Source: a virus
Virus record (IMG/VR): IMGVR_UViG_3300034071_001414
Location: 1 to 64,000 of that record
Length of the DNA stretch: 64,000 nt
Reading direction: 5' to 3' (one strand)
Every line of letters begins with the position of its first letter. Position 1 is the first letter of the stretch. The position numbers and the translations under genes were made by a program. The notes under the pieces were generated by a model, which saw only the letters and a list, made by a program, of their open reading frames with translations, made no database searches and had not been told where the DNA came from. Below, one piece after another: positions 3,401 through 23,353 of this stretch.

Positions 3401-3874
3401 GAAATCAAAATGCTCCAATCCAAACTCTCATTTTTGGAAGAACTGGAAAAGACAAAAACACCAGTAGAAGAAGCATACAAAGATTGGTGGGGACAATATC
3501 CTGAATTGGAAACTGATTCCAAGTATGATGATATGAGATGGAGGGGTTTCCAAGCAGGTTTTCAGGCAGCATACGAAGAGAAGGTAAGAGAAGATGATTA
3601 TTATAATGAAGTAAAGTGTGATGAGAAAGATAATCCAAAACCTTTGGATGATGTGGTGAATAGGTTGGTGAAAAAATATCAAGCACAAAAGCTTTTTAAT
3701 AGATTGGTAGATGAACTTGTTTTTGATTTTGATACCTGTAATGATATTGTAGATTTGGTGGAGGACTGGATTTTGGATGAACAAAATTCTGACGGTTCAC
3801 AGAATGTGAACACTGAACTTCTTGTGGAGGGATTTAATGATGCAATACGCAAAATGAAGGAGATGTTGAGGTAA
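428..3874 (+). CDS. Cluster of ~11 short hypothetical early phage genes (e.g. 428-637, 785-970, 1134-1670, 1663-1866, 2043-2327, 2357-2599, 2601-2960, 2957-3142, 3139-3381, 3374-3874)
   Basis: Tightly packed co-oriented ORFs, many with overlapping stop/start (ATGA); no recognisable functional motifs. Confidence 0.7.
1961..2030 (+). promoter_or_regulatory. Early promoter, family B (GGACACTT-N4-AACTGGCAC box, hairpin, TG-extended TATGAT, leader ACTCTCATACACA)
   Basis: GGACACTTGACGAACTGGCAC at 1961; -10 TATGAT 2012-2017; same leader after TATAAT at 2328 and 4733. Confidence 0.65.
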
Positions 3875-3981
3875 TAAATAATAGTGTCTGTTTGGACGGC
3901 AATCTCTACAGACAAAAGATTAGGTGCTCTTATGGGCACCTTTTCTACTATAAATAATAATGCCGTCCAAATAGAATAGAA
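3873..3981 (+). ncRNA. Putative antisense sRNA cassette 1 (late promoter, stem-loop, terminator, late promoter)
   Basis: AATAAATA 3873-3880; stem TGTCTGT/ACAGACA; TTTGGACGGCA 3891-3901 complementary to TGCCGTCCAAA 3961-3971; terminator AGGTGCTC-ttat-GGGCACCT-TTT; TATAAATA 3949-3956. Confidence 0.6.
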
Positions 3982-4680
3982 ATGAATTATCTAAAGGTTT
4001 ATTGTAACCTCATAAGGAAAGCGGAGAATAGAACTCTTCCTGAAGGTTACACGGAAAAACACCATACCTTTCCAGTAAGTATATTTGGAAAAAATAAAAG
4101 AATTGTAGTTCTTTCTGGTAGAGAACACTATATTGCTCACGCATTATTAGAAAAGATTTGTATAAAAAGGTATGGATTACATCATTATAAAACACACAAA
4201 ATGATAAAAGCATTTTGGTGTATGAATAATCAAATGAAAGAAAGTAGATATGTTAATTCTCATTTATATGAAAGTTCTAAAAAAATATATACTGAAACTA
4301 TAAAAGGTGAAAATCATCATTTTTATGGTAAAAAACATTCATTAGAAACTAAAAGAAAGATTAGTAGACGAGGAGAAAAAAGTCCAAATTATGGTAGAAA
4401 GGCATCAATAGAAACAAGGCAAAAATTAAGTGAAATGCGTAAAGGAAGACCTGGAACATTTGGATTTAGAGGAAAACAACATACAGAAGAACATAAACAA
4501 AAAATGAGAGAACAAAGAGAAGTTAAATCTTTTTGTGTGATTAGTCCTACTGGGGAAATTATTTTTGATAAAAATATGAAGGAATTTTGTAGAAAAAATA
4601 ATTTAGATAGAGGGCATTTTTCTTGTGTTTTAAGTGGAAAAAGAAAATCGCATAAAGGATTTCGTCTTTATCCTGGTTAA
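3982..4680 (+). CDS. HNH homing endonuclease (MobE-like N-terminus, NUMOD3-type repeats)
   Basis: YTEKHH...LSGREHYIAH motif; HHFYGKKHSLETKRKIS and GKQHTEEHKQKM repeats; C-terminal SGKRKSHKGF; AT-rich, late promoter upstream. Confidence 0.85.
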   Translation: MNYLKVYCNLIRKAENRTLPEGYTEKHHTFPVSIFGKNKRIVVLSGREHYIAHALLEKICIKRYGLHHYKTHKMIKAFWCMNNQMKESRYVNSHLYESSKKIYTETIKGENHHFYGKKHSLETKRKISRRGEKSPNYGRKASIETRQKLSEMRKGRPGTFGFRGKQHTEEHKQKMREQREVKSFCVISPTGEIIFDKNMKEFCRKNNLDRGHFSCVLSGKRKSHKGFRLYPG

Positions 4681-4751
4681 GGACACTTAAAGAACTGGTA
4701 CAGAGGCACTTGAAACAGAGTGCCTTTTGTTGTATAATACTCTCATACACA
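4681..4751 (+). promoter_or_regulatory. Early promoter, family B, with -35 inside a hairpin
   Basis: GGACACTTAAAGAACTGGTAC, then AGGCACT/AGTGCCT stem containing TTGAAA, 17-nt spacer, TATAAT. Confidence 0.75.
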
Positions 4752-18145: not shown

Positions 18146-18734
18146 TACCTACTTGGATCCTCTAAAGTGTCTCAGTAGTATAAGCACTGAGCACTAAATG
18201 ACCTTCACTGTTACTGACAAACCCCAAATCATTAACGGCATTGAGCACACTGTCACTGCAGTTAATGGTTTGGACCGTGTTGAAATCAATAACAAACTGC
18301 ATGACATTGGCGACCAAATTATGAAACTGCGGATGCAACAAGATGCACTCGTTCAGATGCGTAACCTGATTGACCGACAATGTGAAATCAGTGAAATGGA
18401 TTCCTTGTTTGATGAGATGTTTGGTAGTTGATATAGTGTCGCCAGAGCAGTCTAGATGCCTCTAGAAGTGCTCTATTTTAGTCTTTAGATACCAAACCAC
18501 TTGAACTGATGAAATACATTAAAGTCCCCGAAACTGCACTTGAAAGGCTAATTGAAGGACTTGAAAGTGCAGTGAATGTGTGCTATACTGCTCCTAACAA
18601 TCCTGGTATTGAAGGGTATCCTTATGCGACTGGATATTCTCGCTCTGCGATGCAACAAGTTATCAAAGACCTTCAATCGCTGAAGACTCAGGCAAAGTGA
18701 CTGTAACTTGGATCCTCTAAAGTGTCCTTATAAT

Positions 18735-19982
18735 ATGATGATGAACCAAATGCAAATCCAACTCCGTCCGCATCAGGAACGTGGCGTTGCTGCGATGGCA
18801 AAGTATAACAAAGGTCAGGTGATTGTCCCCACTGGTGGTGGCAAGACTCTGAAGATGATCTATGATGCTCTGCGTGAGTTGCAGTCTGAAACTCCCCAGA
18901 CTATTGTAGTGGTTGCTCCTCGCATTCTGCTGGCAGAGCAACTCTCTGCAGAGTTCCTTGAGTTTATCACCAATGCTGCGGTGCTTCACATTCACAGCGG
19001 TGAAACTCATCACGAATCCTCTACTCATCCTCGTGTAATCCGTAAGTGGGTTGATGCCAATGCTGACAATCACAAACTGATTGTAACCACCTATCACTCT
19101 CTGTCTCGCCTTCAAGCAGCAGAGATTGATGTGGATACGATTTACTTTGACGAGGCACATAACAGCGTTCAGCGTCACTTCTTCCCTGCAACAGAGCACT
19201 TTGCTGCTAATGCACGACGCTGCTACTTCCTGACGGCAACCCCGAAACATTCCCTTGCTATGGGTAAACCTGGGATGAATGATGCGTCTGTTTATGGTCA
19301 GGTAATCTGCAAAGTTCCTGCTCCTGAACTTGTTGAGGGTGGATACATTGTGCCCCCTAAAGTTATCGTCAAGCAACTGGAGATGGTGAAGGGCAAGCAG
19401 ACCAACTTTGACCGCGATGCAGAGAATCTGCTGGAAACGATTGATGAGAACAGCGTTGGTAAGATTCTGATTTGTGCTAAGGCAACCAAGCAAATCGTGT
19501 CTCTGGTGTCTGAAACTGACTTCTGCCACGAACTACAGCAGCGTGGTTACTCTTGGATGTATATCACTGCCAAGACTGGTGCAGTGATTGATGGCAAGAA
19601 AGTGAACCGTGAGGTATTCTTTGACACTCTCTCTGCCTGGGGTAAGGATAACGACAAGAAGTTTGTTGTTCTACACCATAGCATCCTAAGTGAGGGCATC
19701 AATGTGTCTGGACTTGAGGCAGTGTTGTTTATGCGGAATATGGACTTTATTGGCATTTCCCAAACTATCGGACGCTGCATCAGGTTGCATCACGATGATG
19801 CTCGTAATCTTGCTGCTGGCAATATCCAACCAGGCGCTCTGGATTCCTATACCAAATCGTTCGGTCTTGTGTGTATTCCAGTTTACTCAAAAGTAGGAAT
19901 TGCTACTGCTCGCTCGGTGCAGGCAGTTGTTGATACGATTTTTGAAAAGGGAGAACCTGCTGTGTCGGTGGTGAGGCGGTGA
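18735..19982 (+). CDS. Superfamily 2 (DEAH) helicase
   Basis: LRPHQ, PTGGGKT (Walker A), DEAH, TAT, QTIGRCIR; start 18735 or 18750. Confidence 0.9.
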   Translation: MMMNQMQIQLRPHQERGVAAMAKYNKGQVIVPTGGGKTLKMIYDALRELQSETPQTIVVVAPRILLAEQLSAEFLEFITNAAVLHIHSGETHHESSTHPRVIRKWVDANADNHKLIVTTYHSLSRLQAAEIDVDTIYFDEAHNSVQRHFFPATEHFAANARRCYFLTATPKHSLAMGKPGMNDASVYGQVICKVPAPELVEGGYIVPPKVIVKQLEMVKGKQTNFDRDAENLLETIDENSVGKILICAKATKQIVSLVSETDFCHELQQRGYSWMYITAKTGAVIDGKKVNREVFFDTLSAWGKDNDKKFVVLHHSILSEGINVSGLEAVLFMRNMDFIGISQTIGRCIRLHHDDARNLAAGNIQPGALDSYTKSFGLVCIPVYSKVGIATARSVQAVVDTIFEKGEPAVSVVRR

Positions 19983-20016: not shown

Positions 20017-20040
20017 ATCGGGGTCAAAACCCCGATTTTT
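20017..20040 (+). terminator. Rho-independent terminator after helicase
   Basis: ATCGGGGT-caaa-ACCCCGAT-TTTT. Confidence 0.7.
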
Positions 20041-20296
20041 CTTCAATTCTACTGCAGAGGTGTCATAGGTCATCCGCTGCAATCAAATCACCGATTTTTT
20101 AGAAAGTGTAACTATGAAACAAGGATTCACGATGTTCAAAGACACATATGCTGCAATTCCTTACGGGAATCAGTATCTCATCATCTATAATGGTCAGCAA
20201 CTTGATAAACTTTGTAGGACTGAGAGTTCTGCCCGCAAATATATCACAGACCACAGAAAAAATTGTTCTAATGCAAAATTACCTATTGAGTAATTA

Positions 20297-20405
20297 AATA
20301 AATAATAGTGCCTGAAGTTGACTGACATCTCTACAGGTGAGAGGGGAGCAGAGATGCTCCTTTTCTTGTATAAATACTTAAGTCAGTCAACTTAAGAGCA
20401 GAACT
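20297..20405 (+). ncRNA. Putative antisense sRNA cassette 2
   Basis: AATAAATA 20297-20304; AAGTTGACTGAC 20315-20326 complementary to GTCAGTCAACTT 20382-20393; terminator GGAGCA-gaga-TGCTCC-TTTT; TATAAATA 20369-20376. Confidence 0.6.
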
Positions 20406-21080
20406 ATGGTAAATCCATACAGATTTTATACTTATGCTTATTTGCGTGAGGATAGAACTCCTTATTATATTGGGAAGGGAACTAATAAAAGATTATATGT
20501 TAGGGGAAAAACAGATATAAAACCACCAAAAGATAAGTATAGAATAATCTATCTCAAACAAAATCTAACTGAAGAAGAAGCATTTAAACACGAAACTTAT
20601 ATGATTGCGGTATTCGGTAGAAAAGATTTAGGAACTGGTATTCTTCATAACAGAACTAATGGTGGTGATGGATCTTCGGGAGTGGTAGTAAGTGAGGAAA
20701 CTAAATTGAAAATGAGCAAAACAAGAAAAGGAAAATCTTTTAGTGGGGAGCATAAAAGGAAAATAAGTGAGGCAAAGAAACAACAAACAGAAGAAACGAG
20801 AAAGAAGATAAGTCAGGCAAATAGGGGCAAAAAACGTAGTGAAGAACAAAGGAAGTTAATGAGTGAAAGAGTAAAGGGGAGAAAACACTCTGAAGAAACT
20901 AAAAAGAAAATGAGTGAAAAAAGAAAGGGAAGAGTTTTTTCTGAAGAACATAAACAAAAAATAAGAGAAGCACTTTCTGGTATAAAACGTTCAGAAGAAA
21001 CTAAGAAAAAGATTAGTGAAGCATCAAAGGGAAGAACTCCTTGGAATAAAGGTGTATCAATGGGCAAACTTCCTTTGTGA
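20406..21080 (+). CDS. GIY-YIG-type homing endonuclease with NUMOD3 repeats
   Basis: FYTYAYLREDRTPYYIGKG; LHNRTNGGDG; repeated (K/H)SEETKKK(M/I)SE. Confidence 0.85.
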   Translation: MVNPYRFYTYAYLREDRTPYYIGKGTNKRLYVRGKTDIKPPKDKYRIIYLKQNLTEEEAFKHETYMIAVFGRKDLGTGILHNRTNGGDGSSGVVVSEETKLKMSKTRKGKSFSGEHKRKISEAKKQQTEETRKKISQANRGKKRSEEQRKLMSERVKGRKHSEETKKKMSEKRKGRVFSEEHKQKIREALSGIKRSEETKKKISEASKGRTPWNKGVSMGKLPL

Positions 21081-21424: not shown

Positions 21425-21652
21425 CCTTTGTTCTTGAAACTCCAATGATTTTTCTCACTGTTCCTGGTCACGGTTGCGTTTATACTCTCTCGCAAGAAGA
21501 TGGAGATGAGTTGTACTATGCACCCATTATGCAAGATGGTAGTGTAAATCTAGAGGAGTTTGCACCTGTAGATCTTGACGCTGCAGATATGGACGAAATG
21601 GAACTGTTTGACATTCGCAATCGTCTTCAAAAACTGGTTGAGGTTTGATTAT

Positions 21653-21751
21653 AATAAATAATGATGCTTATGTTTGGTCGCACAAGCACATTGGAGGGGC
21701 AGAAATGTCCCTCTTTTGATATAAATAATCAAGACCAAACATAAAGCAGTT
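21653..21751 (+). ncRNA. Putative antisense sRNA cassette 3
   Basis: AATAAATA 21653-21660; stem TGCTT/AAGCA; TTATGTTTGGTC 21668-21679 complementary to GACCAAACATAA 21733-21744; terminator GAGGGGCA-gaaa-TGTCCCTC-TTTT; TATAAATA 21720-21727. Confidence 0.6.
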
Positions 21752-22378
21752 ATGAATAAAATTATCCTTTTACGGGATGAAATAATTTCCGTATACAAAC
21801 AAACTTACTCTGTTATTCAAGTTTTAGAGCATTTTGGTTATTCTCGAAAGAGTGTAGAAGGAAGAAAACAAATAACTGACATTCTAAAAGAAGAAGGTAT
21901 ATTTGAGGGATTGACTGGTCCTAATGTCATAAAAATGAAGCATCAAAGGGCAAAGAAAACTATGCTCGAAAAATATGGTGTAGACAACTACTCTCACACT
22001 GAATGTGGATCTAAAAATCTACATAATCACAGACAAAAAAGTTATTTTCCTGTAATAGAAGAGTTTAGAAAATATCAGAGTGAAGTTAATAAAGAAACAA
22101 AAAAGGCAATGAGAAAGATAAAAGATAAACCAACTCATTGTGAATACCTTGGTATCAAGTTTGTAGATGATAAAATAGCAAATCCTAACGACCAATTAAA
22201 AAGGACAATAGACCATAAGAAGTCGGTTTATAATTGTTGGTTAGAGGGAATATCTGCAAAAGAAGCATCTTCGCCAGATAATCTTGCTTGGGTTTGTAGA
22301 TACATCAACAGTATAAAAGGAAATGCTGATTATGATGACATTAAACACATTTTTCCCAAAATAAAAGACAAATTGTGA
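21752..22378 (+). CDS. Putative HNH-like free-standing endonuclease
   Basis: KTMLEKYGVDN segment; C-terminal RTIDHKKS...DNLAWVCRYINSIKG (H-N-N); AT-rich. Confidence 0.6.
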   Translation: MNKIILLRDEIISVYKQTYSVIQVLEHFGYSRKSVEGRKQITDILKEEGIFEGLTGPNVIKMKHQRAKKTMLEKYGVDNYSHTECGSKNLHNHRQKSYFPVIEEFRKYQSEVNKETKKAMRKIKDKPTHCEYLGIKFVDDKIANPNDQLKRTIDHKKSVYNCWLEGISAKEASSPDNLAWVCRYINSIKGNADYDDIKHIFPKIKDKL

Positions 22379-22441
22379 CACTTTAACAACTGACCACCCC
22401 TTCTTAACTTTAACTTGGATCCTCTAAAGTGTCCTTATAGT

Positions 22442-23353
22442 ATGAGCAAGACAACCACTAAAAACCTGCACCTTGAGCACCCTGAAGATATGGTGCTGAC
22501 TGGAAATCTTGAGGTTCTTGATTGGTTCTCCGAACCTGATAGTTTTATCTCTGTAAAACTTGATGGTGCGCCTGCTGTGTGTTGGGGCACTAATCCTGCC
22601 AATGGCAAGTTCTTTGTGGGCACCAAATCTGTGTTCAACAAAGTTAAAATCAAAATCAATCATTCTCACGATGAAATTGATTTGAACCATCAGGGCAAGG
22701 TTGCTGATATTCTTCACGCTTGCCTTGATTATCTCCCTCGCATCGCAGGTATTGTTCAGGGTGACTTTATTGGTTTTGGTGGTTCTGATACTTATTGCCC
22801 CAATACTATCACCTATAAGTTTCCTGAGGTAATCACCCAAAAGATTATCATTGCTCCGCATACTTGCTACACTGCAAAGAATGATTTGCGTGATGCAGTT
22901 GCTCAACCCGACTTCTATTTGTGGGTGGATACTGCAGATGTGATGTTTGTCAAACCTGAAGCATCACTGAGTCCTTATCGTGAGGATTTGGAGGATGTGT
23001 GTAAGTTTGCCAAGCAAATGAGCACTCTATGTGAGTTTGTGAGCGATAAGAAGGCAACACAAATCAAAAAAGAGATTAACTCCTGCATCAGGGAGCAACG
23101 GGTCATCTGTGAGGATGAAATTGCAGAAAAATGTAATTGTGATAAGAACCTGATTCGTTTGTGGAAGTTGGTTGCATCTATTAAAGCAGATTTGTTCCTG
23201 TTCATTCACGAAGAGGATGAGATTGAATGTTATCTGTGGGATGTGCAATCCTTTCACGAGGGTTATGTCATCACCAACAAGTTTGGCACCTATAAAGTAG
23301 TTGACCGCGAGACATTCTCTCACGCAAACTTTACTGCTGCCAAGAGTTGGTAA
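22442..23353 (+). CDS. Conserved phage protein with ligase-like nucleotidyltransferase motifs
   Basis: KNLHLEHPED; SVKLDGAP (KxDG), VQGDF, HEGYV, YKVV. Confidence 0.55.
   Translation: MSKTTTKNLHLEHPEDMVLTGNLEVLDWFSEPDSFISVKLDGAPAVCWGTNPANGKFFVGTKSVFNKVKIKINHSHDEIDLNHQGKVADILHACLDYLPRIAGIVQGDFIGFGGSDTYCPNTITYKFPEVITQKIIIAPHTCYTAKNDLRDAVAQPDFYLWVDTADVMFVKPEASLSPYREDLEDVCKFAKQMSTLCEFVSDKKATQIKKEINSCIREQRVICEDEIAEKCNCDKNLIRLWKLVASIKADLFLFIHEEDEIECYLWDVQSFHEGYVITNKFGTYKVVDRETFSHANFTAAKSW

Follow-up and report, generated by a model that had tools for sequence, protein, structure and literature searches.

A portable inverted-repeat cassette with a late-type promoter box between its arms precedes free-standing homing endonuclease genes in cyanophage DNA and probably represents a variant of the T4-family leader hairpin

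Homing endonucleases cut DNA and need tight control, and for the free-standing enzymes outside T4 this control is known from few cases. In the T4 family, an inverted repeat placed round a late promoter is an established cis device of homing endonuclease genes (PMC2988022, PMC3014915). For I-TevI, I-TevII, I-TevIII and segB of T4, as well as for mobE of Aeh1, long early and middle transcripts have the ribosome site buried in a hairpin, and the late promoter located inside this hairpin gives rise to late transcripts which are devoid of the 5′ arm and can be translated (PMC2988022). Closer to the phages considered here, Dassa et al. (2009) described TATAAATA-containing hairpins upstream of free-standing endonucleases at "fractured gene" loci of cyanophage-like ocean and lake metagenomes; in the accessible part of that paper, two mutually complementary conserved motifs are read as a cis hairpin (PMC2677866). 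A different type of RNA, CfrI of cyanophage S-PM2 (Millard 2010), is in the accessible text a true antisense transcript of ~225 nt, covering the 3′ end of F-CphI and psbA (PMC2984593).

Here we present the analysis of 64,000 nucleotides of viral DNA (the window), which constitute the first 64 kb of a 98.5-kb contig of a T4-like cyanomyovirus, whose closest isolates are Synechococcus phages. The window carries three cassettes, starting at 3873, 20297 and 21653. We consider the cassette to be the cyanophage version of the T4-family "late promoter inside leader hairpin" control of a homing endonuclease, and we put the probability of this reading at roughly 78%. The second copy and the gene following it are organized as listed below.

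20297..20304, plus strand: P1, late-promoter-like box AATAAATA, left edge of the cassette and putative promoter
after 20304, plus strand: P1 spacer ATAGT, the predicted P1 start being G20310
20310..20338, plus strand: local 5′ hairpin GCCTG...CAGGT, the loop and 5′ strand of which hold the antisense arm
20310-20314 and 20334-20338, plus strand: stem strands GCCTG and CAGGT, respectively
20315-20326, plus strand: perfect core AAGTTGACTGAC of the antisense arm (extended arm, 20310-20326)
20327-20333, plus strand: ATCTCTA, between the antisense core and CAGGT
20339..20368, plus strand: intrinsic-terminator-like GC hairpin GGAGCA-GAGA-TGCTCC with the tail TTTTCTTG, as found by RNA folding
20369..20376, plus strand: P2, perfect T4-type late box TATAAATA, with the spacer CTTAA and the predicted start G20382
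20382..20399, plus strand: 3′ (sense) arm, i.e. the 5′ end of the P2 mRNA leader (perfect core GTCAGTCAACTT, 20382-20393)
20406..21080, plus strand: free-standing homing endonuclease gene, 224 aa, with a GIY-YIG-like N-terminal domain and NUMOD3 repeats

The pairing continues beyond the cores over AAGAGC and ends 6 nt before ATG, and the stretch between GTCAGTCAACTT and the nuclease ATG at 20406 is purine-rich. The box, stem, arm, ATCTCTA and complement pointed out in the initial annotation of this locus are all found at 20297-20393, with two corrections. The complement, said to lie 6 nt after the box, is perfect over 12 nt but starts 5 nt after it, the first base being the sixth. The compensatory stem, given as CCTG/CAGG versus TCTG/CAGA, does covary between copies 2 and 1, but its full form is GCCTG/CAGGT in copy 2 and GTCTG/CAGAC in copy 1. 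The two other copies of the window have the following composition.

3873..4680, plus strand: copy 1, with P1 at 3873-3880, arm at 3887-3901, predicted terminator at 3922-3948, P2 at 3949-3956, sense arm at 3961-3975 and an HNH/NUMOD3 endonuclease ORF at 3982-4680 (232 aa)
21653..22378, plus strand: copy 3, with P1 at 21653-21660, arm core at 21668-21679, predicted terminator at 21693-21719, P2 at 21720-21727, sense arm at 21733-21744 and an HNH-like ORF at 21752-22378 (208 aa)

The cassette of copy 1 (3873-3981) is identical to that of copy 2 in a 14-nt P1 stretch and in ATCTCTACAG, while its own segment is unlike that of copy 2 and is likewise matched by a complement located downstream. Copy 3 (21653-21751) has the layout of copies 1 and 2 with another arm pair and a different loop. 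The ATCTCTA motif, regarded at first as a conserved site for a protein partner, occurs in a subfamily only and in part coincides with the 3′ strand of the local stem; elsewhere its position is occupied by TCTTTAAGG, TCTATCAGG, TTCAAGC or CTATAGAG, and we do not retain that proposal.

Throughout the 98.5-kb contig, an upstream complement of at least 9 nt was noticed at only 3 of the 37 NATAAATA sites (11, 12 and 12 nt). In 2000 shuffles of the upstream regions, the number of sites with a complement of at least 11 nt had a mean of 0.05 and a maximum of 2. Folding of the read-through RNA gave a long helix in all three copies of the window (z-scores from -4.7 to -6.9), which comprises 15-20 pairs and ends 0-6 nt before ATG. 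Duplex dG within the window amounts to -19 to -26 kcal/mol for cognate pairs, as compared with -3 to -10 kcal/mol for cross pairs, and the three arm pairs are orthogonal to each other. The terminator scan called the equivalent hairpins of copies 1 and 3 and did not call that of copy 2. The sigma-70 scan of the cassettes in the window detected nothing above shuffles, except for a match (TTCAAA-18-TATAAT, 10/12) at 21626-21655, overlapping P1 of copy 3; early transcription of this 5′ unit by the host polymerase might also be possible. Cassette 2 is preceded by a 59-aa ORF (20114-20293), and between this ORF and that of a 424-aa SF2 helicase there is a terminator-like hairpin (20017-20036), so that a short transcription unit may be the sole source of read-through into cassette 2.

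Viral metagenome contigs were scanned twice, using either P1 and P2 or the terminator tail and P2 only as the anchor. The pattern search proposed initially was too specific, as the exact scaffold including ATCTCTACAG gave 0 matches in viral metagenome contigs, and therefore these looser anchors were employed, which revealed the family. After de-duplication of both scans we obtained at least 140 unique cassettes, with at least 64 distinct perfect arm cores, each matched to its own partner, so the idea of a modular RNA with a constant layout and a swapped antisense segment in front of unrelated nucleases holds well beyond the window. In the scan which assumed neither P1 nor arms, a perfect complement of at least 9 nt occurs at 82 of the 110 sites among the matches listed; the remaining sites have mostly one G-U wobble, and about 12 of the 110 listed are non-members, i.e. 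ordinary junctions of a terminator and a late promoter with no P1 or arms. Scaffold matches checked for downstream complementarity thus contain the complement, and nearly all cassettes listed precede homing-endonuclease ORFs.

BLAST of the cassette against isolate phage genomes gave S-SRM01 as the only match. This freshwater phage from a Singapore reservoir has 7 cassettes, all with different arms and all (7/7) in front of endonuclease-like ORFs. One of these ORFs (MW015081.1, 62515-63273) is labelled "translation initiation factor 2", presumably owing to its lysine-rich NUMOD3 repeats, another is annotated merely as a NUMOD3 protein, and the cassettes themselves are unannotated. A variant cassette of S-SRM01 (77561-77670) follows the logic of the other cassettes on a different scaffold: the antisense stretch GTGTCAGGGGTGAT is located in the apical part of a nested hairpin ending in a T-run, where MFE folding of the predicted short RNA places half of it in the inner stem and half in the 4-nt loop, and its partner of 14-16 nt directly adjoins ATG.

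The cassette is portable: stop codons or a tRNA gene lie directly before it, and the nuclease ORFs that follow it are many and unrelated. Homology between cassettes in unrelated contexts begins exactly at the P1 box, and in two contigs a tRNA-Ala(UGC) gene ends directly at the left edge (TAAATA) or reaches 1 nt into it. Among the matches listed, a single arm core can precede as many as 7 nuclease clusters, both GIY-YIG-like and HNH, which means that the cassette recombines freely with nuclease ORFs.

The best supported explanation is masking in cis combined with a bypass from P2, given the layout of the T4 and Aeh1 genes (PMC2988022) and of the cyanophage-like loci as they are presented in the accessible text of Dassa et al. 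(PMC2677866). A transcript containing the upstream arm (20310-20326) would fold back so that this arm pairs with ~18 nt at the start of the nuclease leader (20382-20399), and the resulting helix of 15-24 bp, ending 0-6 nt from ATG, would block ribosome loading, while the predicted intrinsic terminator in the loop would stop most of the upstream-arm transcripts. Only transcripts from the inner TATAAATA (P2), the predicted +1 of which is the first base of the sense arm, would lack the upstream arm and be translatable, so that the nuclease would be made late only and from P2 only. The activity of the promoters and of the terminator, as well as translational masking, is deduced by analogy with I-TevI, segB and Aeh1 mobE. 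What can be read directly from the sequences is the anatomy of the cassette, its covariation, the pairing of the sense strand at the RNA level and the linkage to endonuclease genes. Masking would be partly redundant, because the internal terminator should already remove most of the read-through. Since the SD-like stretch of the leader is weak and purine-rich, the term "RBS sequestration" refers here to position and not to a clear SD.

As in the T4-family genes with a late promoter in a hairpin (I-TevI/II/III, segB, Aeh1 mobE, and also e and soc of T4), the 3′ arm covers the start region (PMC2988022). The two kinds of control also have in common that TATAAATA is situated between the arms, that late transcripts escape and that a homing endonuclease is the controlled product (PMC2988022), a likeness which for the cassette is drawn at the sequence level. 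Unlike its T4-family counterparts, the cassette has a strong predicted intrinsic terminator in the loop and a second late-type box at a fixed spacing before the 5′ arm, this arm also forms its own conserved hairpin, and the whole is a mobile unit that combines dozens of different arms with many nuclease ORFs. The loci of Dassa et al. are likewise cyanophage-like, with a hairpin and a late box before GIY-YIG or Vsr-like free-standing endonucleases, and their element, compared by its text description, is probably the same as the cassette or a sister of it; the outer promoter box, internal terminator, local hairpin and arm diversity are features of the cassette which do not appear in the accessible text (PMC2677866).

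A model limited to cis action leaves three features unexplained: the retention of P1, rigidly spaced, in 96% of cassettes among the matches listed, the start of both arms at a predicted late-box +1 and the conservation of the local 5′ hairpin. Of the 140 cassettes, 134 have the P1 box, N[A/C]TAAATA, which is followed by a rigid N4-T-R-C, and position -1 is A in 106 cases, C in 27, T in 1 and G in 0, all among the matches listed. Its form AATAAATA is the commonest box before the large late ORFs of this phage, which are also preceded by other N[A/C]TAAATA forms. Among the matches listed, TATAAATA is located between the arms of every cassette, the first base of the P2 box is T in 129/131 of them, and N4-T-R-C follows the box here as well; this layout, common to P1 and P2, places the first base of each arm at a predicted late-box +1. 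The RNA predicted to extend from P1 to the T-run has 50-71 nt (median 56) among the matches listed and 59 nt in copy 2 (G20310 to ~20368).

MFE folding of the 79 unbiased cassettes listed gave, in all 79, a hairpin starting from the predicted first nucleotide and a terminator hairpin, with ~60% of the antisense core unpaired in the predicted short RNA. The local 5′ hairpin is represented by 33 different covarying stems in these 79 cassettes, among the matches listed. A stem of at least 4 bp was formed in 78/79 cases with the own 3′ part versus 260/529 with swapped partners, again among the matches listed. A GC hairpin with a T-run is predicted in all cassettes listed, with a median hairpin dG of -11 kcal/mol and 6 T in the last 9 nt in 70 of 79.

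Such features point to a further reading, compatible with the cis model, according to which the cassette may be a two-transcript unit. P1, acting as a late or constitutive promoter, would then direct the synthesis of a ~56-nt co-directional antisense RNA, private to its own endonuclease mRNA; we regard this as a real possibility, falling somewhat short of even odds. The transcript of 50-71 nt would end at the terminator, present the antisense segment in its 5′ hairpin and pair with the whole P2 mRNA leader of 17-25 nt, thus limiting nuclease translation in trans, with a private arm pair for each cassette. The conservation of P1, its -1 position being mostly A or C, and the start of homology exactly at the box speak in favor of such an RNA, as do the use of the same box forms before the large late ORFs of this phage and the coincidence of both arms with a predicted +1. 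It is also in line with the two-hairpin folds with a largely unpaired antisense core, with the halved frequency of the local hairpin once 3′ halves are swapped, with the gap between cognate and cross duplexes in the window and with the apical antisense stretch of the S-SRM01 variant; in addition, cassettes abutting a tRNA gene, where no stop codon is needed, still have P1. On the other hand, in 25 of 63 cassettes among the matches listed the upstream gene uses TAA of the box as its stop codon, which gives a possible other reason for the conservation of the box, base pairs of the local stem take up the outer part of the arm, and the experimental precedent exists for the cis mechanism alone. Arm orthogonality within a genome was rejected as evidence of trans action, since orthologous insertions confound it. 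Comparable regulation is represented by RNA-OUT/RNA-IN of IS10 and by type I toxin-antitoxin pairs with limited complementarity (IstR-1/tisB). The cassette would share with them a selfish gene that limits its own harmful product and a hairpin-loop RNA that pairs with the mRNA 5′ end and ribosome site. Unlike RNA-OUT of IS10, which is transcribed from the opposite strand across its target, the candidate RNA of the cassette would be co-directional, encoded upstream and complementary by way of an inverted repeat.

It is less probable, and in our opinion unlikely, that P1 is not a promoter at all and that the AU-rich TAAATAAT either provides stop codons in two frames for the gene ahead of the cassette or marks a site of RNase E-type processing near the hairpin, in which case the 5′ arm would meet the leader only on read-through RNA from upstream genes. 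Such a role would suit the finding that in most cassettes among the matches listed the upstream ORF ends inside the P1 box or within 10 nt of it, and RNase E processing was reported for segB and segG of T4 and mobE of Aeh1 (PMC2988022). Stop codons, however, require neither an invariant ATA after TAA, nor A/C at -1, nor rigid spacing to the hairpin; moreover, in 60% of cassettes among the matches listed the upstream stop is located outside the box, and two cassettes lie behind a tRNA gene.

With regard to masking in cis, the arms pair at the RNA level, on the endonuclease-sense strand, and not as duplex DNA, because mismatches within paired arms are G-U and not A-C (G:T 18 versus A:C 1 among the matches listed, not all of them independent). 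In the outer helix, RNAalifold detected compensatory changes at 7/7 base pairs (for example CG 42 / UA 37). The MAFFT/RNAalifold alignment yielded only these outer 7 pairs because the variable cores were misaligned, and the covariation of the core was followed by anchored scripts instead. The arm pair evidently drifts by compensatory change, and the covarying stem of a modular RNA, as suggested in the initial annotation, agrees both with the type of mismatches and with one arm standing before up to 7 clusters among those listed. Median duplex dG between arm and leader, among the matches listed, equals -20.6 kcal/mol for cognate and -8.3 kcal/mol for non-cognate combinations. In the family the helix has 15-24 pairs, and its end is 0-6 nt from ATG or overlaps ATG in most cassettes listed. 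Pairing of the P1 spacer (ATRRT) with the bases before ATG was also considered and rejected as a conserved pairing; it shows a weak trend only, ATAGT occurring with CTAT in 8/23 cases versus 6/50 for ATAAT and ATGAT. Separately, a 14-nt exact complement of the copy-2 leader (TCAACTTAAGAGCA) was noticed inside the DNA polymerase gene (contig positions 96717-96730); it contains a CTTAAG palindrome and is probably a chance match, although it could be related to a nuclease target or operator.

That the inverted repeat around P2 functions at the DNA level, as an operator of a protein (nuclease autorepression), a cruciform or a recombination site, is highly improbable, even though I-TevI binds an operator overlapping its own late promoter (PMC2988022) and the cassette is clearly a recombination module with the same arms joined to different ORFs, since the mismatches, G:T and almost never A:C, are strand-specific and RNA-like, the arms are 52-58 bp apart around a second, independent hairpin, and the occurrence of one arm core before up to 7 protein clusters among those listed means that the arms are not a nuclease-specific operator.

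The copy-2 protein matches the Pfam model PF07460 NUMOD3 (E 1e-22, 80 bits versus the 20.4-bit cutoff, 3 repeats) and PHROG homing endonuclease families, and the Pfam GIY-YIG model gave no match to it. In the comparison with 30 relatives Y8, Y12, Y21, G23, E63 and N82 are invariant and R29 is kept in at least 90%; this pattern of Y..Y, YIG, R, E and N fits the GIY-YIG signature. All of the best 10 PDB matches of its AF2 model (pLDDT 84) are GIY-YIG domains, the matches being weak (best E 0.06, probability 0.93, TM 0.5 on the target). The GIY...YIG motifs, the Arg/Glu/Asn residues and the beta-beta-alpha-beta-alpha fold that characterize the family are present in the copy-2 ORF, the fold with weak structural matches. 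The original GIY-YIG label of this nuclease is reasonable on the basis of the residue pattern and the matches of the AF2 model. PDB sequence searches with the nucleases returned no useful match. Among the matches listed, the ORFs downstream of cassettes have 150-330 aa, and 41 of 72 representative ones match the homing-endonuclease PHROG 314; other representatives match HNH or GIY-YIG endonuclease PHROGs and the NUMOD3, I-HmuI-like and GIY-YIG Pfam models. The contig has a fourth GIY-YIG-like endonuclease gene (MENYYTYAYLRE..., 187 aa), located outside the window, with a TATAAATA box and no cassette at 83071-83125. The first 13 nt after this box are perfectly complementary to codons 3-7, and ATG is situated in the hairpin loop, so this leader appears to be of a different, self-contained hairpin design. 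Not every endonuclease gene carries the cassette, as this one, at 83.1 kb, has only TATAAATA and its own hairpin.

The cassette can also be set beside the PeSL cassettes of T4-like phages, with which, according to the accessible text of the respective papers, it shares short promoter/stem-loop motifs at gene boundaries that act as points of module shuffling (PMC2839356, PMC4122927). PeSL are defined by a sigma-70-type early promoter with a stem-loop, and the boxes of the cassette are late-type. Early promoters and ORFan flanks are described for PeSL, and no antisense arm pair is mentioned in the accessible text (PMC2839356, PMC4122927), in contrast to the late-type cassette. Directly 3′ of endonuclease gene 1, at 4702-4738, a terminator-like hairpin is followed by a near-consensus sigma-70-type promoter sequence (TTGAAA-17-TATAAT, 11/12), and this site has the appearance of a PeSL-like terminator-promoter junction, which would restart transcription for the next gene. 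Elsewhere in the window, identical pseudo-N-termini (MDPLKCPY...) are read from TTG at 18708-18735 and 22415-22442, indicating a repeated DNA element at gene boundaries.

Like CfrI, the candidate RNA of the cassette would be non-coding and associated with a homing endonuclease gene of a cyanophage; unlike CfrI, as far as the accessible text describes it, the cassette is an upstream leader element (PMC2984593). In our literature search CfrI was the only endonuclease-linked RNA of a cyanophage reported, again within the accessible text (PMC2984593), and the search brought up no account of a box outside the arms, a terminator between them, a local 5′ hairpin, diversity of the arms or a small RNA. 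Rfam gave no match in the whole window at the gathering threshold, and with E up to 1 the sole match was L20-leader on the minus strand (19.5 bits versus the 58.7-bit cutoff), a chance one, so no described family with another role corresponds to the window. The core principle is known, while the form of the cassette, its spread and the candidate sRNA are new.

In the cassette, the T4 solution takes the form of a compact, mobile and endlessly re-keyed module, widespread in freshwater cyanophage DNA, which constitutes a clean natural example of large-scale compensatory evolution. Its signature allows finding endonuclease genes and cassette borders that are missed by annotation. If P1 does drive a small RNA, the cassettes would represent a new class of phage-encoded co-directional antisense regulators and a source of ready-made orthogonal riboregulator pairs. 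These phages would then possess a natural collection of more than 60 sRNA-leader pairs, all orthogonal to one another and each setting a threshold on nuclease synthesis, and the selfish gene would bear an antitoxin-like brake, exchanged between nuclease ORFs by recombination.
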